A stretch of DNA of 64,000 bases from Eledone cirrhosa (Eukaryota): the NCBI GenBank assembly GCA_964016885.1, contig CAXHJY010000301.1, forward strand, positions 62,001 to 126,000, in the 5' to 3' direction. Position 1 is the first letter of the stretch. Each line of letters opens with the position of its first letter. Position numbers and translations under genes: made by a program. Below, piece after piece: positions 10,043-58,135 of the stretch. The notes beneath the pieces were generated by a model. It was not told the origin of the DNA, did not search any database, and saw nothing but the letters and a program-made list of their open reading frames with translations.

Positions 10043-10758
10043 ATATATATATATATATATATACACATACATAACCATACAAATATACACACATATACAT
10101 ACATATCACAAACGCATACATACAAATACAAACACACATATATGTGTGTAAAACTCATTCTTAGATAATTCATATGAACCTTATTTAACTCTAAAATATA
10201 TATATATATATAAATATATATATACATACATATATATACACATACATACATACTCACATACACATATATACCTACACACATATATATACATACACATACG
10301 TATGCATACATACATACATACATACACACACACATATACATATATAACTAAATATATATATATAAACGGAAAAAATGAAACGATAATATCGAACAATATA
10401 TATATGAGAAAGAACATAAATATTATATATATATATAAAAAATAAATATTGTATATATAAAAAAATATTGTATATATAAAAATAAAAATGAAAATAAAAA
10501 GTTGGGAATACGACAAATAATAAATACAAAAATATATATTTAGAAAAGGGTATAAATGCTTATAGCAGATTTAGAGCACTCAACAAGTTCCTGGAGCAAA
10601 AGATCAATGAAAATAATCATTAAATCACTATATGTAATGATGCATATACATACACCCTTATACATATATACATATACACATATATATACATATATATATA
10701 CATACACACACACACACACACAAAAACACAACCACAGAAATACACACACACATACAAT

Positions 10759-10797
<39 letters not shown>

Positions 10798-10953
10798 CTC
10801 ATAGGAAAAAGTCTGACCCCACGGCAGAGCTCAAACCATTATATAAAAAAATACATATACACGCACAAATATACACACGCCCATACACACACATTAAATC
10901 TATATATACATTTTTGTTTTTAAAATCCAACGTCAATAAATACACCAGGATTT

Positions 10954-11014
10954 TTTCATTCTGATGATTGAAAGCAACATTTTTTTGCTTTTAAGAAACC
11001 ACTGGTAAATGAAA
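10954..11014 (+). ncRNA. Type I hammerhead ribozyme in the 5' pseudo-LTR
   Basis: TTTCATT-CTGATGA-TTGAAAGCAA...TTGCTTTTAA-GAAA-CCACTGG-TA-AATGAAA. All three stems pair; GUA site. Confidence 0.9.
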
Positions 11015-11223
11015 TAATTGCCTTATGTTGTTTATTACATAACTATTAAGCTCTGTTACCTACATAGAGGACTCTTTTTTCCTGGACTTTTCCGACGGAA
11101 TTCATTTATACAGCTCCAACTGGGATTGATTGAAGCATATTCTATATTACATATACGATTGGCACTTTCCAGCCCGATTAGTTGAGCACTCTACAGTTTT
11201 CAGGAATTTAACCAACATACACC

Positions 11224-13351
11224 ATGGACCTTTATGAATTGGATTATTCAATCAAAAATATACCTACCCCTTCCAACACAACTTATACCAAAATGCTTAT
11301 AGATAATATCGAACAAGTCGTTAAAAGAATGAGATGGAAGGCAATGGTTTACGATGGACTATTCAGTGCTGATACTAATGATTGTTTTGACATAAAATCC
11401 CGTAAATATCCACCTAGAATTAAAGACATGGCCAACTTCGAATTAGACCTTGTTAATTTAATTAGTGATATCAAATTTCGTAAGTACAATAATAACTTTC
11501 AAACTAAACTGTCTAACGATATTTCTAATTTTAAAAATTCTACAAACACCTTTGTTCTTTCTGATAAAACTAAAAATCTCTTTGAAGTTAATAGTATTTT
11601 GTATAACCAACTTTTAACTAATAGTATTACCAACAAATATCAATTAACTAATAATAATACCTACAATACTATCAATAAAGAAGCTAAAGAACTAGCTAAT
11701 TCTTTAAAAATAGACAACTGGATTGAAAGCCTAGCTAAGCGTAAAGCATATATTACCCTTAAAGACCATAAATTAGACTTTACTAATCGACCTAGTTGTA
11801 GACTGATTAACCCGGCTAAATCCGAAGTTGGCCTTGCAAGTAAAAAAATCTTAAGAAAAATAATTCTCCAAATTAGAACTAAGACTGACCTATCACAGTG
11901 GCTAAATACTTCCTCTGTTATTTCTTGGTTTAATAATATACAAGGTAAAAATAAGTGTAGATTTACCCAATTTGATATTGTTGATTTTTACCCCTCTATT
12001 ACTGTTTCCTTATTAACTAATGCCTTAGAGTTTGCAAGACCCTTCATTAATATTTCTAAATTAGAAGACATTATCTTTCATGCTAGAAAAACTTTACTCT
12101 TTACTAATGATAATATTTGGGTTAAAAAGTCAAACCCTGAAAACTCTTTTGATGTTGCAATGGGTTCATATGACAGTGCGAATGTGTGTGACTTAGTAGG
12201 ATTATTCCTTCTCCACACCCTCAAAGAGAAATTTCCTTCCCATAATATCGGTTTATACCGTGATGACGGATTAGCAGTTTCTCATACCACCAACGGCCAT
12301 AACCTTGATAAATTCCGTAAAGATTTAATCAATACTTTTGCTAATCTTAACCTTAAAATCACTATAGATACGAACCTTACCAATGCTAACTTTCTTGATA
12401 TTAATCTTGATCTACTTACCGCCTCTTTTAAACCTTATCATAAACCTAATGAAAATCTTATGTATATACACATAGAGTCTTGCCGTCCCCCTATAGTTTT
12501 TAAAAATCTTATTCTCAACATTAGCCGTAGGATTTCTACCTTATTTTCGTCTATAGACATTTTTAATAAAGCCGCCCCTTATTATAATAAAGCCCTTAAA
12601 AACAGCGGTTTTACAGAAAAAATTTATTATTTACCTACCCCGCCCCTAAAACTAACCACAATAATAGGAAAAGGAAAATTATTTGGTTTACACCCACCTC
12701 TCTCTAACTGTCAAAACTAATGTAGGAAGGAAATTCCTTGAACTCTTAGATAAACATTTTCCTCCTAATCATAGATATTATAAGATATTTAATAGAAATG
12801 TAGTTAAGATCAGTTACTCTTGTTGCCCATCAATGAAGTCTAAGATCACTAATTCAAATCATACGAGAACAAATCCAGGATGCAGTTGCAGGAAGCCGGA
12901 TGAATGTCCATTACAGGGCAAATGTAACACCAAATCTGTTGTTTATGAGGCTAAAGTGACACCTTTAATCAACAACCAGCCAGCCAGGAGTGAGCGATAT
13001 GTTGTCATGACCCAGGACAGGTTTAAAACCAGGTTTTATGCACATGTCGCTTCTTTTAAGCACTCCGATAAACAAACAACAACGGCCCTCACAAGTAAGG
13101 TGTGGGAATTCAAGGATAAAAACATCCCGTACTCTATCGATTGGTCTATTTTAGACCATTCGAGGGAGTACCAAAGGGGCACAAAGAATTGTTCTTTGTG
13201 TACCACAGAAAAATATAGGATTTTGCTAAACTTGAAAGCCACTTCTGCTTGCCTGAACTCAAAGACCGAGATCTTCAGATGTTGTCCTCATCTGAAATCA
13301 CATCTGATCTGTAACTGGATTGACATTCCTATGATAACTCAACCACCTTGA
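11224..13351 (+). pseudogene. Penelope-like RT + GIY-YIG endonuclease, frameshifted near 12640-12720
   Basis: RT motifs QFDIVDFYPSI, AMGSYDSA, GLYRDDGL and FLDI. Linker RKRKIIWF lies in a third frame. Then CSCRKPDECPLQGKC, VVYEAKV...YVVMT...FKTRFYAH and CSLCTTEK. Confidence 0.9.
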
Positions 13352-13621
13352 ACTCCTTCTCTGCTCTTTACTTCCACTACGGTTTCTTTACCTGCTGAAT
13401 CCACGTTCTGTACTCTTGTATTCTCTTTCTCCCTTATCTCCCCTTATATTTAAACCTTTTCCTATGTCATTTATTTCCCCCTCTTTTTCCCCCCTATTTT
13501 TTTGCCTTGCCCTTCACATACCAAACATTTTTTTATTTTTAGATATTAATTTTTTTGTGTGTTGCGTATATGTATGTATATGTGTATATATGTATATGTA
13601 TGTATATATGTATATGTATGT

Positions 13622-13663
<42 letters not shown>

Positions 13664-13826
13664 GTATGTATATGTGTGTGTATATGTATATGTGTATGTA
13701 TATATATATGTGTGTGTATGTATGTTTATATCTATCTGTATGTATATGTATATGTATATATAATCGTATATATTATATATTTCTGTTGTATTTGTGCGCG
13801 CGTGTGTGTATGTATGTGTGTATACA

Positions 13827-13898
<72 letters not shown>

Positions 13899-14096
13899 TA
13901 TGTATGTATGTATATATATGTATGTATGTATATATGTGTATGTATGTATGTGTGTATATATAGATTTAATGTGTGTGTATGGGCGTGTGTATATTTGTGC
14001 GTGTATATGTATTTTTTTATATAATGGTTTTGTGTGTATATATATAATAGCCTCAGAAATGGCTTGAGCTCTGCCGTGGGGTCAGACTTTTTCCTA

Positions 14097-14130
<34 letters not shown>

Positions 14131-14618
14131 CGTAATTGTATGTGTGTGTGTATTTCTGTGGTTCTGTTTTTGTGTGTGTTTGTATATATATATGTATATA
14201 TGTATAAGGGTGTATGTATATGCATCATTACATATAGTGATTTAATGATTATTTTTATTGATCTTTTGCTCCAGGAACTTGTTGAGTGCTCTAAATCTGC
14301 TATAAGCATTTATACCCTTTTCTAAATATATATTTTTTTATTTATTATTTGTCGTATTCCCAACTTTTTATTTTCATTTTTATTTTTATTTTTATTTTTA
14401 TTTTTATTTTTATTTTTATTTTTATATATACAATATTTTTTTATATATACAATATTTATTTTTTATATATATATAATATTTATGTTCTTTCTAATATATA
14501 TATATATATATTTAGTTATATATGTATATGTGTGTGTGTGTGTATGTATGCATACGTATGTGTATGTATATATGTGTGTGTGTGTATGTATGTATGCATA
14601 CGTATGTGTATATATGTG

Positions 14619-14663
<45 letters not shown>

Positions 14664-15610
14664 TCATTTCATTTTCATCATCATATATATATATATATAT
14701 TTCAGAGTTAAATAAGGTTCATATGAATTATCTAAGAATGAGTTTTACACACATATATATGTGTTTGTATTTGTATGTATGTGTTTGTGATATGTATGTA
14801 TATGTATGTATATATTTGTATGGTTATGTATGTGTATATATATATATATATGTATGTGTGTGTATATATGTATATGTGTGTGTGTATGTAATTGTGTATG
14901 CGTATGTATGTGTTTATGTATTTGTATATGTATATTTATGTGTGAGAGTGTGTGTATGTATTTATTTTTACGTATGCATGTGTATGTGCATTTGTGTGTA
15001 TTGCTTACCACGTGTGTTTGTTCATTTATTTGTTGCCTGTATCGCTGTCAACATTATAATAGTCTTTATATTCATTTTTATTTTTTATTATTATATATTT
15101 TTTCTTATATTTATTTGTGTGTGTGAGTATGTAGAGGTGTGTGTATATATTTCTATTTTTGTGCATGCGTATGTATGCGTGTATATATGTCTGTATGTAT
15201 GTGTATGTATGTACGTGTGTATATACGTATGATTGTGTGTATGTATGTATGTATGTGGTTGTATATGTGAATGTATATGTATGTGCATATATATATATAT
15301 GTGTGTGTGTGGTTGTATATATGTATGGATATGTTGATATTTATGTGTGTATGTATGTATGTGTATATGTATGTGTATGTATATATATACACATATATGT
15401 GTGTGTGTGTGTATATATGTGTGGGTGTATGTATGTGTGTATGTATATATATATATATATATATATGTGTATGTATATAATTGTGTGTGTGCGTGTTTGC
15501 ATGTGTGTTTTTATTTTATTTTTCCTTTCCTTCTTCCTTTTCCAGCCTGACTTTCATATAGATTGCATTTTTGTTTTCAAAACCCAACGTCAATAAATAC
15601 ACCAGGATTT

Positions 15611-15671
15611 TTTCATTCTGATGATTGAAAGCAACATTTTTTTGCTTTTAAGAAACCACTGGTAAATGCAA
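15611..15671 (+). ncRNA. Type I hammerhead ribozyme in the 3' pseudo-LTR
   Basis: Same as 10954-11014 with one stem I mismatch (AATGCAA). Confidence 0.88.
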
Positions 15672-15708
15672 TAATTGCCTTATGTTCTTTATTACATAAC
15701 TATATATG

Positions 15709-15904: not shown

Positions 15905-16199
15905 TATATGTATCTATATATATATGTATATATATATATATATATGTATCTATATATACATGTATATATATATGTATATATGTATATATATAAAGGTTTA
16001 CATATACATAAAGTTATAGATATATATGTTGAAACCGGTCACTTTTAAGCTCTATGAAGAATTAATAAATTAAATAATCAGAGCAATATATATTTGGAAG
16101 AGGAATTGGTATATATTTTATCTAATAATTCTAAGGACATGATTTATGATATATATATGTATATATTTCTATATATGTATATATATATATATGTGTGTG

Positions 16200-16232
<33 letters not shown>

Positions 16233-16305
16233 TTAAAAATGTATATATATATGTAGATATATGTATATATATGTATATATATGTATATATATATGTAGAT
16301 ATATG

Positions 16306-16338
<33 letters not shown>

Positions 16339-16465
16339 GTATATATATATATGTATATATATATATGTATATATATATATGTATATATATGTATTTATAT
16401 ATATATGTATATATATGTATTTATATATATATGTATATATATATATGTATATATATATATATGTG

Positions 16466-16499
<34 letters not shown>

Positions 16500-16643
16500 T
16501 ATTGTTTTTATCGTTTCCGCTGAACCGGTGCGTACAATGACTCACGTTCTATGCAAATTAGTCTACCCACTACTAATTTTCATAGAAAAAGCATATAACG
16601 ATATGTGCTTTTACAATTCTCCAGAGAAGCCGGAAGATGGGTA

Positions 16644-16688
16644 AATATTGCTGATGAGATGTAATAACATCGAAACTAGTCCAATATT
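16644..16688 (+). ncRNA. Minimal type I hammerhead ribozyme, intact
   Basis: AATATTG-CTGATGA-GATGT-AATA-ACATC-GAAA-CTAG-TC-CAATATT. Perfect stems I and II, palindromic CTAG, GUC site. Confidence 0.93.
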
Positions 16689-17112
16689 CCTGTCTGGCCC
16701 TCTGGAGAATAGAGGAAATGTGTTTCCTTGAAAACTCGTATGACTCTAAAACCCGGTCCGCCTGTGTGGTTACATACAGACTAGCTGACACTCACTGTAA
16801 AGTGTCTAGTGAAAAGCTGAGTACATGTACATATGTATACATGTGTGTATTTATATGCATACTAATACTTCCGTATACATATGTAGATGTACACTTTAAC
16901 TTAATTGTTTAAGCGTCAGTCATACAAAAGTGAGTTAGAAGCGAAACGAAATTTAATTTCGTTTCGTTATTTGTTTTTATCGTTTCCGCTGAACCGGTGC
17001 GTACAATGACTCACGTTCTATGCAAATTAGTCTACCCACTACTAATTTTCATAGAAAAAGCATATAACGATATGTGCTTTTACAATTCTCCAGAGAAGCT
17101 GGAAGATGGGTA

Positions 17113-17157
17113 AATATTGCTGATAAGATGTAATAACATCGAAACTAGTCCAATATT
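17113..17157 (+). ncRNA. Hammerhead copy with core mutation (CTGATAA, G8>A)
   Basis: Identical to 16644-16688 except in the catalytic core. Confidence 0.85.
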
Positions 17158-17707
17158 CCTGTCTGGCCCTCTGGAAAATAGAGGAAATGTGTTTCCTTGA
17201 AAACTCGTATGACTCTAAAACCCGGTCCGCCTGTGTGGTTACATACAGACTAGCTGACACTCACTGTAAAGTGTCTAGTGAAAAGCTGAGTACATGTACA
17301 TATGTATACATGTGTGTATTTATATGCATACTAATACTTCCGTATACATATGTAGATGTACACTTTAACTTAATTGTATATATATATATATGCAAGCGTG
17401 GAACACGGACGCTAAACCTGATGATGATGATGATGATGATGATATATATGTATATATATATATATATAATGAAGGAAATGTGGTAAGGAACCAGGTGGAC
17501 CATAACGCACCAAAGTACTCAATACTTAGGGTAGTAGAGTGGGTAATAGGAACGAGTAGGACCCCGACGGCTGAGCTCAAGCCGTTTCGACAGCTAATTC
17601 TCGACTGAATGTCCAGAATTAGCCATCGAAACGGCTTTATATATATATATATCATTTCATTTCATTTTACGTCCGCTTTTTCCCTGCTTGCAAGGGTGGC
17701 ACGGGAA

Positions 17708-21692: not shown

Positions 21693-21793
21693 ATATACAT
21701 ATACACAAACTAGACAAAGTCACAGATATATATGTTTTGGCAACCATTCACGATGTGGCTCAATGATGAATTAATAAATTAAATAATCAGCAA

Positions 21794-22285
21794 TATACTA
21801 TAAAGTATATCCATAGAATCATTTGATAATATATATATATACACCATTTCCTCTCCCAATTAGCATAATTAACCACAGAAAAAATCAATTAAACCAGGCT
21901 ATAAGATTAAAAGGCACCTATGAAGAAATAGTAGATAAATAAATGACACCAATTTATTCGCGATCAACCGCTATAGAATATTAACCCAACATTTCAATAG
22001 CACGTGGAAATCGATTAAATATACCGTAAATCATACATAATTAGGTATAAAATTAAAGTTAGAAGAAAAAATGCAAATACACGTACCATGCTATTGAAAT
22101 GTTGGATAAATATTCTATATCGGTTGATTGTGAATAAATTGCTGTCGTTTATCTACTATTTATTTATAGGTGCCTTTTAATCTTATAGCCTGGTTTAATT
22201 GATTTTTTGTGTGGTTGATTATGCTAATTGGGAGAGGAAATGGTGTATATATATTATCAATTGATTTTATGGACATACTTTATAG

Positions 22286-22290
<5 letters not shown>
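21794..22290. repeat. Foldback element with ~200-bp inverted arms
   Basis: ~21794-22002 is the reverse complement of ~22088-22290, e.g. AAACCAGGCTATAAGATTAAAAGGCACCTAT / ATAGGTGCCTTTTAATCTTATAGCCTGGTTT. Confidence 0.88.
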
Positions 22291-22933: not shown

Positions 22934-23032
22934 CAACTAGAAATAGATCCGAGCATTGGATCTTTGAGTTTATTCTACGGTGGATATGGCGCATGTCTCT
23001 CAGACATGACAACCCTTAATTTTAATTTTGGA

Positions 23033-23069
<37 letters not shown>

Positions 23070-23108
23070 ATATATATGTTATATGTATATATATGTATAT
23101 ATATGTAT

Positions 23109-26100
23109 ACTTGTCCTCAATAAAACCACGGTGACAGTAATATCTGCGTACGCACCCCAATCCGGACTGCCCCGCGCTATAAAAGACAAATTCTACGAGA
23201 CACTGATGCTCGCTACCTCCCAAATAACCGACAGTGACTATATAGTTATTGCAGGCGACCTAAATGGTCACGTTGGACAACATTGTGACGGCTATGACGG
23301 AATCCATGGAGGCTATGGGTTCGGTACTAGAAATGAGGAAGGCTCCAGAATCCTGGAATTCTGCGACGCAAATAACTTAACTATCTGTAACACTAACTTC
23401 AAAAAACGAGACAATCACTTGATCACCTATAGATCGGGGGAACACACAAGCCAGGTAGATTATATCCTTACCAGAAGACGTGACAGAGTGTCTGTTGTTA
23501 ACACTAAATCCCACCCCCATGAAGAATTCACCTCCCAACATAGACTGATAATTAGCGACCTCATAGTCAGGACGAGACGTACTAGACAGCGGAAGAGGAC
23601 TATCCTCAGGAGAAAAATATGGAAGCTAAAGGACCCCATAGCCAGAAATAAATTTCAAAGCATATTACTTGACGCTTTCGACAGTAAGGAAGAGCAATTA
23701 GAGTCGTATAATATAGAGGAACAGTGGGAATTCCTGAGAGCAAACCTGCTGACGGCGGCAGACGAAGTCTGTGGCTGGAGCAGGCCTGTAGGTAGGAGGA
23801 GAGTAACATGGTGGTGGAACAGTAAGGTGGAGGAGTCAATTAAGGCCAAAAAGCAGGCTTGGAAAGTATGGCGGGATGGGGGAAGTAGAGAAGACTATCA
23901 AGTGGCCAGGAGGGAAGCTAGGAGACAAGTGTACTTCGCAAGAAGGGAAGCAGAGGAAAGAAAGTTCAAGCATGTTCTACAACGTGAGGACCAAAAACGT
24001 GAGGTGTTCAGGATTGCCAGGCAATGTGTCAAGGAAAACCGTGATATTGTCGGGGAGAAGTGTGTACTTAACGATGATGGCATACTTGCCATCACCGACG
24101 CTGATAAGAAGGTAGCTTGGAAGTGTCACTACGAAAGGCTTCTAAATGAGGAGAACAAATGGGAGAAAGACAGTCTCCCCCAGATCGATCCAATAGAGGG
24201 ACCAGCAGTGTTAGTTGAAGGTAGTATAATAAGTAAGGCAATCAAAGATATGAAGACGGGTAAGGCGGCTGGGCCTTCGGAAATAGTTGCTGAGATGCTG
24301 AAGGCATCTGGTTCGGTGGGACACACCATGGTCACCCGGTTAGTTAACCAAGTCGTACAGAATGGGGTTGTTCCGAAGGAATGGCGTAGCAGCATCATCG
24401 TTAACTGCTATAAGGGAAAAGGAGATGCCCTAGATAGGAGTAACTATAGAGGCATTAAATTAATCGACCAGGTCATGAAGGTCACGGAAAAAGTAATAGC
24501 GCAACTAATCAGAGAGAGAATTGATCTAGATGAAATGCAGTTCGGGTTTGTGTCAGGCAAAAGTACCACAGACGCTCTTTTCATTGTACGACAACTACAG
24601 GAGAAGTACCTAGCTAAAAGTAAACCCCTATACTTAGCTTTCGTCGACTTGGAGAAAGCCTTCGACAGAGTCCCCCGTTCCATTATCTGGTGGTCTCTTA
24701 GAAAACTAGGTGTTGACGAATGGCTTGTGAGAGCTATACAAGCCATGTATAAAGAAACAGTCAGTAAGGTTAGAATTAACAACGAATATAGTGAAGAGTT
24801 TAGCGTAAAAGTTGGTGTCCATCAGGGCTCTGTTCTTAGCCCCCTACTATTTATTATTGCCCTTCAGGCTATAACAGAGGAGTTCAAGACCGGCTGCCCA
24901 TGGGAACTCCTATACGCAGATGATCTAACGCTCATAGCTGAATCAATGACCGAACTAGAGAAGAAATTCCAAACGTGGAAGCACGGCCTAGAATCAAAAG
25001 GCCTTAAAATTAACCTGGCTAAGACTAAAGTTCTAGTTTGTAGGAAAGAAAATAAGGCGGCGGTCCCATCGGGGAAATGGCCATGCTCAGTGTGTAGGAA
25101 AGGCGTAGGTAGAAACTCCATTTTATGTCCCAAATGCAAAGTATGGGTGCATAAAAGATGTAGTGGGATCACAGGTAAGCTAACTAAGAACATAGATTTT
25201 ACATGTGGCCGGTGCTCTGGTGCAATAAGTAGCAGCAAGTGCCCACAAAATACTAGCTCCTTCAACTGCGCAGAGGGTTCTATAGAAATAGTGGACAGCT
25301 TCCGTTATCTGGGTGACAAAATCAGCAGTGGGGGAGGGTGCTCTGAAAGTACAGTAGCTAGAGTCAGAACTGGATGGAAAAAGTTCAGAGAGCTTATACC
25401 ACTATTAGCCGCTAGAGGGTTCTCCCTAAAAATGAAAGGCAGGTTATACGATGCCTGCATACGAACAGCAATGCTGCATGGCAGTGAGACCTGGGCATTG
25501 TGTGCAGAGGATATACGCAGACTAGAGAGGAACGAAGCTTGCATGCTCCGCTGGATGTGCAATAGTAATATACGTGAACGGCAAAGCATAAACGAACTAA
25601 GGAAAAAATTAGAAATAAGAGGGATCAGATGTTGTTTACTCGAGAGAAGGCTACGTTGGTACGGTCACGTGATGCGCATGAAAGACGACAGCTGTATAAC
25701 AAAGTGCAGGGCAATAAAGATAGACGGTAGCCACGGAGTAGGCAGACCCAGAAAAACATGGGACGAGCTGATAAATTCCGACCTCACACGCTTACACCTC
25801 TCCAAGACAATGTCACTGGACCGAGACCTTTGGCGGTACTCAGTAATAGAGAAGACCCGCCTTACCTAAATACAAAGTAAAAACCTACTACAGTCAGTAG
25901 GCATCTCTATCAAAACACACCCTCGTCCCACCACCTCCACCCCACCCACACCGGCCCTTTCAATGTAAAGTTATGTTGGTCCCACAACATCCAGGCCGAA
26001 ACAAATGAGATCGTGTAGGTGTCACGACAAAAAACACACAGTCCACGCTGTAAATGTGGCCGTGTAGGCAACACGGTAAAAACCTCCCAGCCCCACACTG

Positions 26101-26372: not shown

Positions 26373-26398
26373 ATATATATATATGTTATATGTATATA

Positions 26399-26846
26399 TA
26401 TTGTTATGCTTTGGGAAGGTCATGTTGCCAATAAGAAACACACGCACCAGTTGCTTTCACTTCAATTTATTATAAATTAAATTTATAAATTTAGGAATTT
26501 AAAAATTTCCGGTTGGTTGGTTCCACAAGCAGACGATTGTTCATATATTGTCAAAGTTCTTTTGTCACACATTCTGTGACCTCTTCAGTGACTGGGGATT
26601 CTTTTCTTTGTTTTTGTGCCTCTCCTTTGTTCTGTCCTACGCCAACTTGTCACTGAAGAGGTCACAGAATGTGTGACGAAAGAACTTTGGCAATATATGA
26701 ACAATCGTCTGGTTGTGGAACCAACCAACCAACCGGAAATTTATAAATTCCTAAATTTATAAATTTAATTTATAATAAATTGAAGTGAAAGCAACTGGTG
26801 CGTGTATTTCTTATTGGCAGCATGACCCTGCCAAAGCATAACAATA
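26399..26846. repeat. Foldback element with ~195-bp inverted arms, each carrying an HHR
   Basis: 26399-26592 is the reverse complement of 26649-26846, with a ~56-nt spacer. Confidence 0.9.
26647..26693 (+). ncRNA. Minimal type I hammerhead ribozyme
   Basis: TTGTCA-CTGAAGA-g-GTCACA-GAATG-TGTGAC-GAAA-GAAC-TT-TGGCAA. The mirror copy on the minus strand (26548-26592) has AAAA instead of GAAA. Confidence 0.75.
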
Positions 26847-26903
26847 TCGGTTTCAACACATGTTTTCAGATAAATTGCTAAACAAATTCAGAAACGATTT
26901 ATG

Positions 26904-26990
<87 letters not shown>

Positions 26991-26997
26991 GTATATG

Positions 26998-27075
<78 letters not shown>

Positions 27076-27110
27076 TGTATATGTATATATATATGTATAT
27101 ATATATATAT

Positions 27111-30100
27111 AGAATAATTAAAATAAGACTTGTTCTAAATAGAACTACTGTGACGATAATATCTGCGTACGCGCCCCAATCCGGACTGCCTGGCGCTATA
27201 AAAGACACTTTCTATGAGACACTGATGCTCACTACCTCCCAAATAACCGACAGTGACTATATAATTATTGCTGGCGACCTAAATGGTCACGTTGGACAAC
27301 ATTGTGGCGGCTATGATGAAATCCATGGAGGCTATGGGTTTGGTACTAGAAATAAGGAAGGCTCCAGAAGCCTGGAATTCTGTGACGCAAATAACCTAAC
27401 AATCTGTAACACTAACTTCAAAAACCGAGACAATCACTTGCTCACCTACAGATCAGGGGAACATACCAGCCAGGTAGATTATATCCTTACCAGAAGACGT
27501 GACAGAGTGTCTGTTGTAAACACTAAATCCTTCCCCCATGAAGAATGCACCTCCCAACATAGACTGATAATTAGCGACCTCATAGTCAGGACGAGACGTA
27601 CTCGACAGCAGAAGAGGACTATCCTCAGGAGAAAAATATGGAAGCTAAAGGACCCCACAGCCAGAAATAAATTTCAAAGCATATTACTTGATGCTTTCGA
27701 CAGTAAGGAAGAGCATTTAGAGTCGGACAATATAGAGGGACAGTGGGAATTCCTGAAAGCAAACCTGCTGATGGCGGCAGACGAAGTCTGTGGCCGGAGC
27801 AGGCCTATAGGCAGGAGGAGAGTAATGTGGTGGTGGAACAGTAAGGTGGAGGAGTCGATTAAGGCCAAAAAGCAGGCTTGGAAAGTATGGCGGGATGGGG
27901 GAAGTAGAGAAGACTATCAAGTGGCCAGGAGGGAAGCTAGGAGACAAGTGTACTTTGCAAGAAGGGAAGCAGAGGAAAGAAAGTTCAAGCATGTTCTACA
28001 ACGCGAGGACCAAAAACGTGAGGTGTTCAGGATTGCTAGGCAACGTGTCAAGGAAAACCGTGATATTGTTGGGGAGAAGTGTGTACTAAATGATGATGGC
28101 GTACTCGCCATGACTGACGCTGATAAGAAGGTCGCTTGGAAGTGTCACTACGAGAGGCTACTAAATGAGGAGAATAAATGGGAGAAGGATTGTCTCCCCC
28201 AGATCGATCCAATAGAGGGACCAGCAGTGTTAGTTGAAGGTAGTATAATAAGTAAGGCAATCAAAGATATGAAGACGGGTAAGGCGGCTGGGCCTTCGGA
28301 AATAGTTGTTGAGATGCTGAAGGCCTCTGGAACGGTGGGACACACCATGGTCACCCGGATAGTAAACCAAGTCATACAGAATGGGGTTGTTCCGAAGGAC
28401 TGGCGTAGCAGAATCATCATTAACTGTTACAAGGGTAAAGGAGACGCCCTAGATAGGAGTAACTATAGAGGCATTAAATTAATCGACCAGGTCATGAAGG
28501 TCACGGAAAAAGTAATAGTGCAACTAATCAGAGAGAGAATCGATCTAGATGAAATGCAGTTCGGGTTTGTGTCAGGCAAAAGTACCACAGACGCTCTTTT
28601 CATTGTACGACAACTACAGGAGAAGTACCTAGCTAAAAGTAAACCCCTATACTTAGCTTTTGTCGACTTGGAGAAAGCCTTCGACAGAGTCCCCCTTTCC
28701 TTTATCTGGTGGGCTCTTAGAAAAGTAGGTGTTGACGAATGGCTTGTGAGAGCTATACAAGCCATGTATAAAGAAACAGTCAGCAAGGTTAGAATTAACA
28801 ACGAATATAGTGAAGAGTTTAGCGTAAAAGTTGGTGTCCATCAGGGCTCTGTTCTTAGCCCCCTACTATTTATTATTGCTCTTCAGGCTATAACAGAGGA
28901 GTTCAAGACCGGCTGCCCATGGGAACTCCTATACGCAGATGACCTAACGCTCATAGCTGAATCAATGACCGAGCTAGAGAAGAAATTCCAAACATGGAAG
29001 CACGGCCTAGAATCAAAAGGCCTTAAAATTAACCTGGCTAAGACTAAAGTTCTAGTTTGTAGGAAAGAAAATAAGGCGCCGGTCCCTTCCGGGAAATGGC
29101 CATGCCCAGTGTGTAGGAAAGGCGTAGGTAGAAACTCTATTTTATGTCCCAAATGCAAAGTATGGGTGCATAAAAGATGTAGTGGGATCACAGGTAAGCT
29201 AACTAAGAACACAGATCTTACATGTGGCCGGTGCTCTGGTGCAATAAGTAGCAGCAAGTGCCCACAAAATACTAGCTCTTTCAACTGTGCAGAGGGTTCT
29301 ATAGAAATAGTGGACAGCTTCCGTTATCTGGGTGACAAAATCAGCAGTGGGGGAGGGTGCTCTGAAAGTACAGTAGCTAGAGTCAGAACTGGATGGAAAA
29401 AGTTCAGAGAGCTTATACCACTATTAGCCGCTAAAGAGTTCTCCCTAAAAATGAAAGGCAGGTTGTATGATGCCTGCATACGAACAGCAATGTTGCATGG
29501 CAGTGAGACCTGGGCATTGTGTGCAGAGGATATACGCAGACTAGAGAGGAACGAAGCTTGCATGCTCCGCTGGATGTGTAACAGTAATATACGTGAACGG
29601 CAAAGCATAAACGAACTAAGGAAAAAATTAGAGATAAGAGGGATCAGATGTTGTTTACTCGAGAGAAGGCTACGTTGGTATGGACACGTGATGCGCATGA
29701 AAGTCGATAGCTGTATAACAAAGTGCAGGGCAATAAAGATAGACGGTAGCCACGGAATAGGCAGACCTAGAAAAACCTGGGACGAGCTGATAAACTCCGA
29801 CCTCACACACTTACACCTCTCCAAGACAATGTCACTGGACCGAGACCTTTGGCGGTACTCAGTAACAGAGAAGACCCGTCTTGCCAGTAGGCATCTCTAA
29901 CAAAATACACCCCGTCCCGCCACCACCCCCACCCCATCCACACCACCCCGTTCTATGTAAAGTTGTGTTGGTGCCGCGCCATCCAGGCCGAAACAAATGA
30001 GATCGTGTAGGTGTCACGACAAAAAAACACACAGTCCACGCTGTAATGTGGCCGTGTAGGCAACACGGTAAAAACCTCCCAGACCCACACTATAAATGTG

Positions 30101-30786: not shown

Positions 30787-30967
30787 TATATATACATATA
30801 CGTATATATACATATATGTATATATACATATATGTATATATACATATACGTATATATACATATACGTATATATATATATGGCGAGGTTATATTTAATTTT
30901 ATGGGATTCAACAAGCTTAAAATTTTTTTTATAACTGATATAAAGCACTCAACAAGTTAGATGAGTA

Positions 30968-31185
30968 AATATACAATATATTAATAAATGGAAACTATAT
31001 TTATAAAACTATAATAATTTTATTATATATATTTCAAGGCCGACCAAGGTATTTATTTATAAAACAAATCTGTATTTTATCTGATGAAAGCGCACCATAA
31101 TTTACCTTGGTCGCCCTTGAAAAATATATAATAAAATAATTATGGTCTTATAAATATAGTTTCCATTTATTAATATATTGTATAT
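30968..31185. repeat. Foldback element (arms ~30968-31050 and ~31103-31185) with an HHR at 31073-31138 (+)
   Basis: Arms are reverse complements. TATTTTAT-CTGATGA-AAG...CTT-GAAA-AATATA-TA-ATAAAATA; the opposite arm reads GAAA-TATATA-TA. Confidence 0.75.
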
Positions 31186-31195
31186 ATATATATAT

Positions 31196-37048: not shown

Positions 37049-37237
37049 AACACTGCAAAGAGCCGCTTGACAAATACGTCAACGAAAAATTCACCAATGT
37101 TAAAGTTATCCATGCTAAACAACGTGAAGGCCTTATTCGAACCCGACTCCTTGGAGCCAAAGCTGCCACTGGACAAGTCCTTATATTCCTAGATTCACAT
37201 GTGGAGGCCAATGTGAATTGGCTGGCCCCACTTTTGG
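37049..37237 (+). CDS. GALNT10: Internal exon of a polypeptide N-acetylgalactosaminyltransferase (GALNT10-like)
   Basis: TTTATTTTCTACAG acceptor and G|GTAAGT donor. 189 nt encoding [62 protein letters not shown], with REGLIR and the metal-binding DSH motif. The subfamily call comes from recalled similarity to GALNT10 (EANVNWLPPLL). Confidence 0.9.
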
Positions 37238-46271: not shown

Positions 46272-47575
46272 ATAGGTCCGTACGAAGCTAAGAAGAGATA
46301 TGTGTGTATATGTGAGTAAAAGAGTGTGTGTGTGCATGTAAGTATGAAGTTATAAGCAAAGAGAAAGCGATAGGAATCTAGGAGTGTGATAATGGACAGG
46401 GTATTAGAGAAATTGGGGAGGTGAGTTGAGTCCAAGAGGGGAATAGGACCCAAGACGGTGAATCAGACTTTGTTCAGTTAGGTGCGCGAGGCCTGTGATC
46501 CATGATTAAAAGGACACCCAGGACAAACATGTAGGGAAGAATGACCAGGAGAACAGAAATGACGGGCAACAGGAGTATCCAAACCGAGTGGTATGTCCCT
46601 CAAATGTTTGGCAAAACAGTCTGCCATACGGCGTCCCCTTTGTCCGATATATAAAGACCTACAAAGGGAACACCGGAGGGCATAGGCAATGTGGGTGGAT
46701 GTGCAGGTGAAGGAATGGCGGATATGGAAAGACCCGTTAGGGCCTGTAAGAGTGGTGAGAGTGGAAATAAAGGGACAAGTGTTGCAGCGGGAACGGGAAC
46801 AAGGATGAGAGCCGGGTGGAGTCGTGGGAGAGGACGAAAAGGAACAGCAAACCAGGAGGTCGCAGAGGTTGCGGGCGCGCTTAAAAGTAGTAATGGGTAG
46901 GTTTGGAAAAAAGTGAGAAGTGACGGGGTCAGAAGAGAGGATACGGAAGGAACGGAGGACATGTTGCCAGAGTGGTAGGGTGATGGGGTGGTAGGTGAGA
47001 GGGAAAGGAACACAGGTGTTGGGAGGGTGGGGGGTGAGGTGAAAGGGCTGTGGTGCGGTCTGTTTCACGGGCGCGGGTGAGAGCAGCTTGGATCAGGGTG
47101 GGGGGATATCCATGCTGGATGAAGCAGTAAGCCATGCAAAGGGAATGGGTTTCGAAATTGTCGTCTTGGCTACAGAGTCGATGGAGACGAAGGAATTGGG
47201 AATAGGGTATGGAGTGTTTGGTGTGGGTTGGATGGGAGGAGGTGAAGTCGAGGTAAGATTTGGAGTCTGTTGGTTTAAAATAGATGGAAGTAGAGAGGGT
47301 GTGGTGAGAGTGATTAATAGATAGAGAGATATCTAGAAAAGCAACAGAAGAATCGGAGACGGAGGCGGTGAAATTGAGAGCAGGATAGAAAGATTGGGCA
47401 AAAGAAAGAAAACAGTCAAGTTGTTCTTGTGATAGAGAGGTCGCACTGATACAGTCGTCGATATAACGACCGTATAGCTAAGGAGTCGGTCCAGCGTACT
47501 GGGAGAAGATCTGGGCTTCGATGTAGTCAACAAACAAGTTGGTATAGTTTGGACCCATTCTGGTTGCCATCGTGT
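45905..47575 (-). mobile_element. Decayed Penelope-like element (Neptune-like), 5'-truncated, with 3' pseudo-LTR
   Basis: Minus strand RT motifs MGPNYTNLFVDYIE and YIDDCI. Cys-rich linker PCSRSRCNTC. GIY-YIG region YALRCSLCRSLYIGQ...FAKHLRDI. Confidence 0.85.
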
Positions 47576-49520: not shown

Positions 49521-50499
49521 TGTCCAATTATGATTTATGTGCATATGTATAATATATTATTACAAAAAGGATAAGATACACTAAATATTGACTTAGAGTT
49601 ATACCAATGGGAATTAAAAGGGATTTTATCACTTCAGAAGTGAAGTTGAAGTTGTGAAAAAAATTAGTTTTAAAATATCACAAAAGAATGTTTAATAATT
49701 ACGGAAGCATATAACAGTAATTAAATATAGCAATAATTCAATATATATGTCCAGTGACTTAAGAATTTTACAATGGGTATAATTTAAGAATTTACAATGG
49801 GTATAATTTATCTGGGTCAAATGTAAAAGAAAAAGTAAAATATTCTATGTGGATAGGAAAGGATTATTTCATTTTTGGAATTGAGAAGGATGATTTTTGA
49901 AGTAATTATTTTTAATACTTCGGTCAGACAAAGATTGTATTTAGTTCTACCCCTTACATAAGGTTTTGAAGAGTTAATAATATCCTGCTTTTTAAACACC
50001 AGATTAATTTAACTAAGTTAATAGAGTTTTTTAATTTTTCATTCTTAAAAGAATGAAAATACATATAAAAATGGGTCTTAACCCTTTAGCATTCACATTA
50101 CTCTATATTTACTAATTTATTTTCACAGTAAAGGCTTTATCTTAAATAATTATCGCACATAATATTGAATTTGTGAGATTTTGATGTTATTTATTTTGAG
50201 AACAATGTTAGTAATTTGAGGTCTGTTTAATTTATTATTGTAGTCAGATATAACATTATGTATATTACACAACCAAAGAGTGTTATCAGCATTATTAATC
50301 TGTTATTCTTAGTATTATATTCATTATTATATAAATTTGAGCGACTTCCATCCATCACACAATGTGTGTGTGTGTGTTTGTATGATTGTATGTATATGTA
50401 AAAGGAAGGAAGGGGATGTTGAAAAAACTATAGCAAAACAGTAGCTGGTGTTCCATTTACTATACTGTGTGGGAGTGTATGTGCATGTTTGTGTGAATA

Positions 50500-52061: not shown

Positions 52062-55000
52062 TCATCATCATCATCATCAACGTTTAACGTCCGTGTTCCA
52101 CGCTTGCATGGGTTTGGACGGGGGTAGTCCCACTTGAAGCAAGAGTGATTGTCTTGCTCGCATAGGACTGTCTGGCAGGTTTTCTACAGTTGGATGCCCT
52201 TCCTAACACCAACCACATTTACAGTGTGGGTCTGGGAGGTTTTTAGCGTGTTGCCTACACGGCCACATTACAGCGTGGACTGTGTGTTTTTTTGTCGTGA
52301 CACCTACACGATCTCATTTGTTTCGGCCTGGATGGCGCAGCACCAACATAACTTTACATAGAACGGGGTGGTGTGGATGGGGTGGTGGTGGTGGGACGGG
52401 GTGTATTTTGTTAGAGATGCTACTGGCAAGGCGGGTCTTCTCTGTTACTGAGTACCGCCAAAGGTCTCGGTCCAGTGACATTGTCTTGGAGAGGTGTAAG
52501 TGTGTGAGGTCGGAGTTTATCAGCTCGTCCCAGGTTTTTCTAGGTCTGCCTATTCCGTGGCTACCGTCTATCTTTATTGCCCTGCACTTTGTTATACAGC
52601 TATCGACTTTCATGCGCATCACGTGTCCATACCAACGTAGCCTTCTCTCGAGTAAACAACATCTGATCCCTCTTATTTCTAATTTTTTCCTTAGTTCGTT
52701 TATGCTTTGCCGTTCACGTATATTACTGTTACACATCCAGCGGAGCATGCAAGCTTCGTTCCTCTCTAGTCTGCGTATATCCTCTGCACACAATGCCCAG
52801 GTCTCACTGCCATGCAACATTACTGTTCGTATGCAGGCATCGTACAACCTGCCTTTCATTTTTAGGGAGAACCCTTTAGCAGCTAATAGTGGTATAAGCT
52901 CTCTGAACTTTTTCCAACCAGTTCTGACTCTAGCTACTGTACTTTCAGAGCACCCTCCCCCACTGCTGATTTTATCGCCCAGGTAACGGAAGCTGTCCAC
53001 TATTTCTATAGAACCCTCTGCGCAATTGAAAGAGCTAGTATTCTGTGGGCACTTGCTGCTACTTATTGCACCAGAACACCGGCCACATGTAAAATCTATG
53101 TTCTTAGTTAGCTTACCTGTGATCCCACTACATCTTTTATGCACCCATACTTTGCATTTAGGAAATAAAATGGAGTTTCTACCTACGCCTTTCCTACACA
53201 CCGAGCACGACCATTTCCCAGAAGGGACCGCCGCCTTGTTTTCTTTCCTACAAACTAGAACTTTAGTCTTAGCCAGGTTAATTTTAAGTCCTTTTGACTC
53301 TAGGCCATGCTTCCATGTTTGGAATTTCTTCTCTAGCTCGGCCATTGATTCCGCTATGAGTGTCAGGTCGTCTGCGTATAGGAGTTCCCATGGGCAGCCG
53401 GTCTTGAACTCCTCTGTTATAGCCTGAAGGGCAATAATAAATAGTAGGGGGCTGAGAACAGAGCCCTGATGGACGCCAACTTTTACGCTAAACTCTTCAC
53501 TATATTCGTTGTTAATTCTAACCTTGCTGACTGTTTCTTTATACATGGCTTGTATAGCCCTCACAAGCCATTCGTCAACGCCTAGTTTTCTAAGAGCCCA
53601 CCAGATAATGGAGTGGGGGACTCTGTCGAAGGCTTTCTCCAAGTCGACAAAAGCTAAGTAGAGGGGTTTACCTTTAGCTAGGTACTTCTCCTGTAGTTGT
53701 CGTACTATGAAAAGAGCGTCTGTGGTACTTTTGCCTGACACAAACCCGAACTGCATTTCATCTAGGTCAATTCTCTCTCTGATTAGTTGCGCTATTACTT
53801 TTTCCGTGACCTTCATGACCTGGTCGATTAATTTAATGCCTCTATAGTTACTCCTATCTAGGGCGTCTCCTTTACCCTTATAACAGTTAACGATGATGCT
53901 GCTATGCCAGTCCTTCGGAACAACCCCATTCTGTACGACTTGGTTAACTATGCGGGTGACCATGGTGTGTCCCACCGTGCCAGATGCCTTCAGCATCTCA
54001 GCAACTATTTCCGAAGGCCCAGCCGCCTTACCCGTCTTCATATCCTTGATTGCCTTACTTATTATACTCCCCTCGACTAACACTGCTGGTCCCTCTATTG
54101 GGTCGATATGGGGGAGACTGTCTTTCTCCCATTTATTCTCCTCATTTAGTAGCCTTTCATAGTGACACTTCCAAGCTACCTTCTTATCAGCGTCGGTGAT
54201 GGCAAGTGTGCCATCATCGTTTAGTACACACTTCTCCCCGACAATATCACGGTTTTCCTTGACGCATTGCCTAGCAATCCTGAACACCTCACGTTTTTGG
54301 TCCTCGCGTTGTAGAACATGCTTGAACTTTCTTTCCTCTGCTTCCCTTCTTGCTAAGTACACTTGTCTCCTAGCTTCCCTCCTGGCCACTTGATAGTCTT
54401 CTCCACTTCCCCCATCCAGCCATACTTTCCAAGCCTGCTTTTTGGCCTTAATTGACCCCTCCACTTTACTGTTCCACCACCATGTTACTCTCCTCCTGCC
54501 TACAGGCCTGCTCCAGCCACAGACTTCGTCTGTCGCCATCAGCAGGTTTGCTTTCAGAAATTCCCACTGTCCCTCTGTATTGTCCGACTGTAAATGTTCT
54601 TCCTTACTGTCGAAAGCATCAAGTAATATGCTTTGAAATTTATTTCTGGCTGTGGGGTCCTTTAGCTTCCATATTTTTCTCCTGAGGATAGTCCTCTTCT
54701 GCTGTCGAGTACGTCTCGTCCTGACTATGAGGTCGTTAATTATCAGTCTATGTTGGGAGGTGCATTCTTCATGGGGGAGGGATTTAGTGTTTACGACAGA
54801 CACTCTGTCACGTCTTCTGGTAAGGATATAATCTACCTGGCTTGTGTGTTCCCCGGATCTATAGGTGATCAGGTGATTGTCACGTTTTTTGAAGTTAGTG
54901 TTACAGATAGTTAGGTTATTTGCATCACAGAATTCCAGGATTCTGGAGCCTTCCTCATTTTTAGTACCAAACCCATAGCCTCCATGGATTTCGTCGTAGC

Positions 55001-55575
55001 CGTCACAATGTTGTCCAACGTGACCATTTAGGTCGCCTGCAATAATTATATAGTCACTGTCGGATATTTGGGAGGTAGTTAGCATCAGTGTCTCATAGAA
55101 TCTGTCTTTTATAGTGCCGGGCAGTCCGGATTGGGGTGCGTACGCAGATATTACTGTCACCGTAGTTCTATTGAGGACAAGTCATATTTTAATTATTCTG
55201 ACGTTCACTCTATTTACGTCTATTATCTTATCTGCCCACTTTTCTGCTACAATGATTCCTACTCCACCCAGCCCATCGTCGTTTCTCACCCAGAAAAGCT
55301 TATAACATCGTTTTTTACCCTCGATGAATCTAGCAGACCCACCCCTCCACCTGGTCTCTTGAATACAACATACATCGACCTCCTTACGTTCAAGCATTTC
55401 TACAACCTCGTTAGCGCGACCCTTTAGGGTGCCTACATTTATGGTACCAACTCTGAAGTTTTGGATTGCGTTTGGAGGGTGGGGGCGGTGGGGGGCGGGG
55501 GGAGATGGGGTTTTGTTAGCCATCCGCGGACGAAACAAAGAGGAGTGCTCGCATTCTCATCCACGAGGTGAATTT
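52058..55575 (-). mobile_element. RTE-clade LINE, apparently full length, with a single in-frame stop
   Basis: ORFs 55538-55182 and 55160-52314 are in the same frame, separated by TGA at 55184-55182 (AGA in sister copies). Complete APE (GTINV, CIQET) and RT. Confidence 0.95.
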
Positions 55576-57943: not shown

Positions 57944-58135
57944 TAATAATAATACAAGGACGATTTGTTAAGCCTTCATTATGTTTGTTGATTGGTGATG
58001 TGCGTTTCACTATTGATCAGCTCAAGGTTCGATCTGTATCGATACAGATCGAACCTTGAGCTGATCAATAGTTAAACACGCATCTCCAATCAATAAATGT
58101 AATGAGGGCTTAACAAATCGTCCTTGTATTATTAT
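57944..58135. repeat. Spacer-less ~190-bp palindrome
   Basis: Centre GGTTCGATCTGTATC|GATACAGATCGAACC. Arms extend to ATAATACAAGGACGATTTGTTAAGCC / GGCTTAACAAATCGTCCTTGTATTAT. Confidence 0.92.

Follow-up and report, generated by a model that had tools for sequence, protein, structure and literature searches.

The stretch of Eledone cirrhosa DNA analysed here, 64 kb long and hereafter called the window, carries on its forward strand one internal coding exon of GALNT10 (37049..37237), which spans about amino acids 192-256 of 604, is bounded by AG and GT splice signals, and matches an Octopus GALNT10 protein at 98% identity. As the sole GALNT10 exon in the window, it implies introns exceeding 37 kb on its upstream side and 26 kb on its downstream side, with at least four hammerhead motifs in sense orientation. 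If the gene is intact and colinear, the tandem element that is the subject of this analysis (16502..17377) probably lies in sense orientation within the intron of more than 37 kb, and read-through of that intron would be the most likely source of its transcripts.

About 0.8 kb upstream of the tandem element is a Penelope-like element (PLE) of the Hydra clade (10909..15703, forward strand), whose RT-endonuclease coding region (11212-13351) is split over two frames and which has 138-nt, hammerhead-bearing direct repeats (10909-11046 and 15566-15703; 97% identical). Helix I of this PLE's hammerhead is 6 bp, with the hammerhead of the 3' repeat having a weaker one, and a truncated, inverted copy of 13953-14855 is present upstream at 10043-10910. 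Neither this element nor the probably intronic setting had been remarked on in the first-pass annotation. A Pfam search of the two Hydra-type frames returned no family; the identification comes from homologues and from the RWK, DKT and CxCX5C motifs, which correspond to the motifs published for the Hydra clade (PMC8557442). With this Hydra-clade Penelope, the genome offers a plausible kind of enzyme for mobilising the tandem element. Coding fragments of additional Penelope-like RT and endonuclease lie on the minus strand (46478-47573 and 49844-50079), and 16008-16046, between two TA tracts, retains the 3' half of a hammerhead of a third type, comprising GAAA, a 6-nt palindromic helix III and the cleavage site, in which a 5-bp helix I still pairs and the core is unrecognisable; this is probably a decayed Penelope-type ribozyme. 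Also present are three near-complete LINE copies (23026-25869, 26874-29900 and 52314-55181), which we take to be of the RTE type; their open frames span ~950 aa and include a PHD finger downstream of the RT, and their 94-96% identity indicates that they were recently active. Long self-complementary stretches or inverted repeats lie at 21793-22290, 26398-26847, 30966-31188, 57946-58135 and 61929-62139/62809-63019, the last of which has 34-bp internal tandem units and resembles a foldback or MITE element.

The tandem element itself is non-coding (36.9% GC) and consists of 1.87 head-to-tail units of 469 bp on the forward strand: a first full period (16502..16970), whose final 62 nt (16909-16970) are single-copy, and a second, partial period of 407 nt (16971..17377). 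The first-pass annotation had described nearly two near-identical 469-bp units with no credible ORF and with TA tracts at both sides, all of which is borne out, except that the right end, given there as 17378, falls at 17377. At the period of 469, segments 16502-16908 and 16971-17377 differ by three mismatches in 407 nt (99.3% identity), namely C at 16631 versus T at 17100, G at 16656 versus A at 17125, and G at 16707 versus A at 17176. All three are transitions, and at each of them it is copy 2 that has the allele weakening a pair or the ribozyme core. Even when the unit is read as a circle, its longest stop-to-stop frames are 84 aa (plus strand) and 72 aa (minus strand), and there is no ORF remnant inside the unit or between the copies.

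Both ends of the insertion directly abut (TA)n sequence, with no duplicated flanking sequence: on the left is a (TA)n-type tract (16150..16501), the probable insertion target, and on the right a (TA)n tract (17378..17391). When a target-site duplication is present in metazoan non-LTR retrozymes it is longer than 4 bp; here, with (TA)n on both flanks, such a duplication is indistinguishable from the microsatellite. Inspection of the junction sequences by eye revealed no LTR ends and no TG...CA, PBS or PPT, and for want of the latter three we dropped an LTR or TRIM reading of the 469-bp element; neither an A nor a B box was found in the unit, as judged against a general consensus. A hairpin noted earlier at about 16942-16966 is real and has 13 pairs (16940..16968, forward strand). 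It is present once, has the highest per-base stability among the 10 stem-loops in the unit, and its 3' foot is 3 nt from the position equivalent to the insertion's left end (16971).

Each unit contains one type I hammerhead, with a helix I of 6-7 bp that continues into an extended arm and a helix II of 4-5 bp. In hammerhead 1 (16617..16709, forward strand, arm included), the proximal helix I is formed by 16645-16650 and 16682-16687, with a possible seventh pair (16644/16688) and a 3-nt bulge (16642-16644); the core is intact from C3 to A9 (16651-16657) and is followed by helix II (16658-16671), GAAA (16672-16675), and a helix III of 1 bp plus a palindromic tetraloop (16675-16680), placing predicted cleavage site 1 after 16681. 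Hammerhead 2 (17086..17178, forward strand), with predicted cleavage site 2 after 17150, has the core change G8>A at 17125, as the first-pass annotation had noticed, and a broken arm pair at 17176. A strict hammerhead descriptor matched the window twice (at 16651 and 10961) and matched none of 200 block-shuffled windows; the hammerhead in the 469-bp unit is far beyond chance expectation. The earlier description of 16644-16688 as a textbook hammerhead holds for its canonical anatomy but needs a caveat: a search of the window against Rfam gave no match at the gathering score, and the best hammerhead family, HH9, matches the two copies at 31.8 and 28.9 bits (E 7.8e-6 and 6.7e-5), short of its cut-off of 52. 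A relaxed core scan of the unit found two cores on the plus strand and none on the minus strand, and a viroid-like or satellite circular RNA with hammerheads in both polarities was discarded because the minus strand lacks a core. Other ribozyme classes in the unit were checked by Rfam alone; its miRNA matches were far under threshold, arose from a low-complexity TA/TG-rich hairpin, and were rejected.

The unit is also predicted to fold far better than its surroundings. Its circular fold (69% of positions predicted to be paired) has a z-score of -8.4 for the sense strand and -6.4 for the antisense strand, versus values between -2.3 and +1.3 for all 19 control windows of 469 nt. The predicted unit-length RNA from site to site (16682..17150, forward strand, 469 nt), which would carry the mutant core and have its ends paired by helix I, has a minimum free energy of -157.6 kcal/mol (z = -9.84), and none of 100 shuffles was as good. 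By region, the ribozyme arm has z = -5.7, 16502-16609 has z = -3.5 and 16895-17080 has z = -6.8, with 16716-16815 folding no better than chance (z = -1.4); the further extension of stem I that had been proposed pairs as written (z = -4.8). Three metagenomic ORF-less tandem units have fold z-scores of -1.0, -3.9 and -2.5. Folding on this scale suggests that selection has acted on the RNA of the entire unit.

To place this ribozyme among others, metagenome and viral contigs were searched with a relaxed pattern that consists of the hammerhead core and the identical palindromic helix III. The pattern occurred in 68 metagenome and 2 viral stretches, which resolve into 66 loci and 34 clusters; a helix filter was passed by 31 of the 76 relaxed matches, and the remainder includes chance matches and short-helix PLE forms. 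The exact 26-nt core pattern had no match in the metagenome contigs and none in the viral contigs, and among the 66 loci there was no relative of the unit beyond a single 31-nt core match. The proximal helix I is 3-5 bp in all ten RT-linked clusters, versus 6 bp (4 in one member) with a 3-nt bulge in all four clusters of ORF-less tandems with periods of 491-1021 bp, which probably represent three independent families and one of which shares the UAA bulge of the window's ribozyme. Two tandem clusters with no detected RT are exceptions (3 and 5 bp, at periods of 1902 and 161), as is the window's own PLE ribozyme with its 6 bp, and the remaining 18 clusters show no RT match and no long repeat. 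The geometry of the window's ribozyme is that of the ORF-less tandem type, helix I length alone not being diagnostic. In their own right, seven of the metagenomic loci look like retrozymes, being tandems of ORF-less units (491-1021 bp) that carry canonical type I hammerheads, and four others are tandem or end-overlapping RT elements of ~3 kb with one hammerhead per unit.

Copies of the unit occur at one locus in the 64-kb window. Among the 23 runs listed for it by a sequencing-run index, 17, from 13 studies, contain words of the element, and no RNA run is listed among these. With the top study left out as a possible source, eight listed runs (five studies, five organism labels) contain 0.21-0.66 of the sampled words, which would correspond, as a word-based estimate, to roughly 95-99% identity; eight run entries with small shares were excluded from use. 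Such word sharing fits a family common to related species, and it also fits an orthologous locus in close species.

The closest known systems are the metazoan non-LTR retrozymes, with which the element shares a non-coding repeat unit a few hundred bp long, arranged head to tail and with GC below 50%, a type I hammerhead per unit, a predicted circle that is highly self-paired, the lack of LTR, PBS and PPT, and the presence of PLEs in the same genome (PMC7229834). Helix III belongs to the type seen in axolotl HHR_Amex1 (1 bp plus a palindromic tetraloop), which works as a dimer, and this weak, amphibian-type helix is atypical among the invertebrate examples tested in that paper; the unit, at 469 nt, is longer than the 170-400 nt reported there for invertebrate circles. 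The element further differs in that its second core is mutated and in that it is known from sequence alone. Like the retrozymes described as Penelope derivatives by Li, Clavereau & Pollet (bioRxiv 10.64898/2026.07.22.740005), it has a dimer layout, co-occurs with PLEs, and has a unit within the range of 51-972 bp; intronic copies are common in Xenopus (42-44%) in that study, and the element here is probably intronic. The link to PLE pseudo-LTRs (pLTRs) drawn by the same authors has no counterpart here in homology to the one intact pLTR in the window. An 'active' retrozyme in their sense has two consecutive complete hammerheads, whereas here the second is incomplete, with G8>A at 17125.

With the hammerheads of Penelope pLTRs, those of the Hydra clade included (PMC4209133, PMC8557442, PMC11167929), the unit shares type I topology, a palindromic helix III, a partial-tandem layout and insertion into AT-rich or (TA)n DNA. 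Penelope pLTRs, however, flank an RT/GIY-YIG ORF, whereas the unit has no ORF, and the nearest PLE ORF, which stops at 13351, is accompanied by unrelated repeats of its own. The minimal pLTR geometry also differs (helix I of 4-5 bp and helix II of 7-8 bp; PMC4209133), the unit's architecture matching instead both the published canonical form, which has a helix I of 6 bp, a helix II of 4 bp and a helix III of 1-2 bp with a palindromic loop (PMC4209133), and axolotl HHR_Amex1 (PMC7229834). The insertion can equally be drawn as two 407-bp direct repeats with hammerheads around a spacer, in the manner of plant LTR retrozymes (PMC4918200), but the plant hammerheads are of type III rather than type I, the spacer here is only 62 bp, and the TG...CA ends, PBS, PPT and 4-bp target-site duplication of the plant elements are absent. 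In the literature searched, no title or abstract offered a cephalopod hammerhead or retrozyme: the main text of PMC7229834 mentions neither octopus nor cephalopod (its supplement, which covers more invertebrates, may hold one), the invertebrates among the 35 genomes of Li, Clavereau & Pollet are three insects and one anthozoan only, and the main text of the O. vulgaris repeat annotation (PMC13282606) mentions neither ribozyme nor retrozyme.

In the family's working form, pairing between the palindromic loops would complete the weak helix III and both sites would be cut, after which the released unit would be ligated by a host RtcB-type ligase. The double hammerhead would be a nested fold, in which helix I joins the 5' strand of copy 1 to the 3' strand of copy 2, a 6-bp helix arises between the palindromic loops, and the inner strands are paired as well. 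The energy model puts this conformer at -284.8 kcal/mol, 9.8 kcal/mol better than two active monomers (-275.0 kcal/mol), and 5 kcal/mol above the unconstrained fold, tertiary contacts lying outside the model. The pair probability of the swapped helix I is 0.001 versus 0.97 for each copy's own helix, and on these energies and probabilities cleavage may have been poor even before G8>A arose. For comparison, the axolotl monomer of the HHR_Amex1 type was cleaved 6% in an hour and its dimer much better (PMC7229834), and one of nine genomic Xenopus dimers was cleaved in vitro (bioRxiv 10.64898/2026.07.22.740005).

In the double hammerhead, core 1 would cut site 2 (after 17150), and core 2, in which C3 faces A8, would face site 1 (after 16681). 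Since the mutant core serves site 1, that site is expected to fail or to be cut weakly. We found no literature on G8A itself; the claim that it is inactive draws on the abolition of cleavage by single changes at C3 or G8 (G8C and C3G; PMC11167929), on the natural covariation that keeps the C3-G8 pair as U3-A8 (PMC4209133), and on the catalytic role of G8 (PMC6155905). On this model, most cutting at the locus should occur after 17150, a unit should be freed only inefficiently, and whatever unit is freed would have a dead core; cleavage at site 1 would rely on slow monomer cutting or on a second molecule. One mechanistic proposal of the first-pass annotation consequently fares poorly at this copy: cleavage from hammerhead to hammerhead, freeing a unit that circularises, requires both cuts and has a mutant core at one of them. 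The cut that it suggested mapping, after 16681, is, under the inferred topology, the one predicted to be weak. We give about even odds to production of 469-nt circles by the family, and regard detectable production by this particular locus as doubtful. A17125 adjoins a long helical arm, within an RNA that is probably transcribed in sense as part of the GALNT10 intron, and A-to-I editing is very widespread in octopuses; conversion of A17125 to inosine could conceivably restore the pair with C3, turn on cleavage at site 1 and free the 469-nt circle. The position of this adenosine is what speaks for such gating by editing, which we consider extremely improbable, simple decay accounting for all three differences between the copies.

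We consider the dimer to be a retroposed copy from a metazoan non-LTR, non-autonomous retrozyme family of an octopus, to which we assign a probability of roughly two-thirds (about 0.68). The anatomy, the fold and the comparison with published features all support the retrozyme candidacy first proposed for it, and the element fits metazoan non-LTR retrozymes on every feature that can be tested in its sequence except copy number and target-site duplication. An RNA with more than one unit, either a circle or an uncut tandem transcript, would have served as the template for a Penelope-type RT/endonuclease, which would have copied it at a nick in the TA tract, starting from 17377, passing through one full unit, and halting in the second round close to the 3' foot of the 13-pair hairpin, with the copies afterwards diverging at three sites. 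That stalling at the hairpin foot caused the left end is a post hoc and weak suggestion. The ends of the insertion are 180 nt before site 1 and 227 nt after site 2; because neither falls at a cleavage site, the template was not a cut linear monomer. It had been proposed to be a circle of ~469 nt, which fits, but a circle is not required, since an uncut linear multimer would equally give 1.87 units. The PLE RT initiates internally in vitro and uses unprocessed RNA, with no need for ribozyme cleavage (PMC11167929), so an insertion of more than unit length needs no circular template; PLEs, moreover, target AT-rich DNA and (TA)n (PMC11167929, PMC8557442). The divergence of 3/407 nt between the copies translates to about 1 Myr (0.2-3) under a borrowed rate (JC 0.09 = 25 Myr; PMC13282606).

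The unit might instead be the pLTR of an ORF-bearing Penelope family located elsewhere in the genome, in which case the locus would be a truncated partial tandem that arose with no circular stage. PLEs do form partial tandems, prefer AT-rich DNA, initiate internally and insert in vitro without hammerhead cleavage (PMC11167929); among 57 Xenopus retrozyme families, 24 are similar to known repeats, which are almost always PLE termini (bioRxiv 10.64898/2026.07.22.740005); and the identical core and helix III motif lies beside RT genes in 10 of the 34 clusters. That the unit and the region between its copies hold no ORF remnant, that helix geometry groups it with the ORF-less tandems, and that most of it folds strongly make such an origin unlikely. 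Nor does the unit resemble the repeats or the unique flanks of the neighbouring PLE: eight of ten strand and region tests were within the shuffled range, and the other two concern one region (14040-14360), whose similarity was dismissed as a low-complexity match. Because the repeats of that Penelope element are unrelated to the unit, the dimer is not its terminal repeat.

Two further explanations were considered. A local DNA-level duplication of a monomer-length hammerhead element would yield a dimer with no RNA intermediate, and this would be in keeping with the single known locus, the microsatellite-rich setting, the other short tandem duplications in the window (periods of 112 bp and 48 bp), and the 99.3% identity of the copies. 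Against this, both ends abut the TA tract cleanly and the flank is not duplicated, and we judge the explanation improbable; the parent monomer, too, would be a mobile unit that bears a hammerhead and folds strongly, so the explanation bears mainly on how the locus arose and less on what kind of element it holds. That either the duplication or G8>A is an artefact of assembly or consensus between long TA tracts is less credible still. The analysis is based on assembly sequence, and the flanks do comprise hundreds of bases of low-complexity DNA, but the RTE copies in the window retain open frames of ~950 aa, suggesting good base accuracy, and with two adjacent haplotypes one would expect to see the flank repeated along with the unit.

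The retrozyme class, its circles and its link to Penelope have already been published, and the locus is an addition to them, not a discovery. This copy, with its mutated second ribozyme, would be a poor source of RNA circles, and a family that is live as a circular-RNA retroelement, common to several octopus species and moved by a Hydra-clade Penelope, is for now a tentative picture that we think has less than even odds of being correct. The locus is relevant to the question whether the template for retrozyme copying is a circle or an uncut multimer, and its natural G8>A copy is a ready test of the double-hammerhead model, under which site 2 (after 17150) should be cut and site 1 (after 16681) only little. 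If the retrozyme reading is true, the known range of non-LTR retrozymes would come to include cephalopods, here with a long and unusually well-folded unit and a dimer-dependent hammerhead of the amphibian type.
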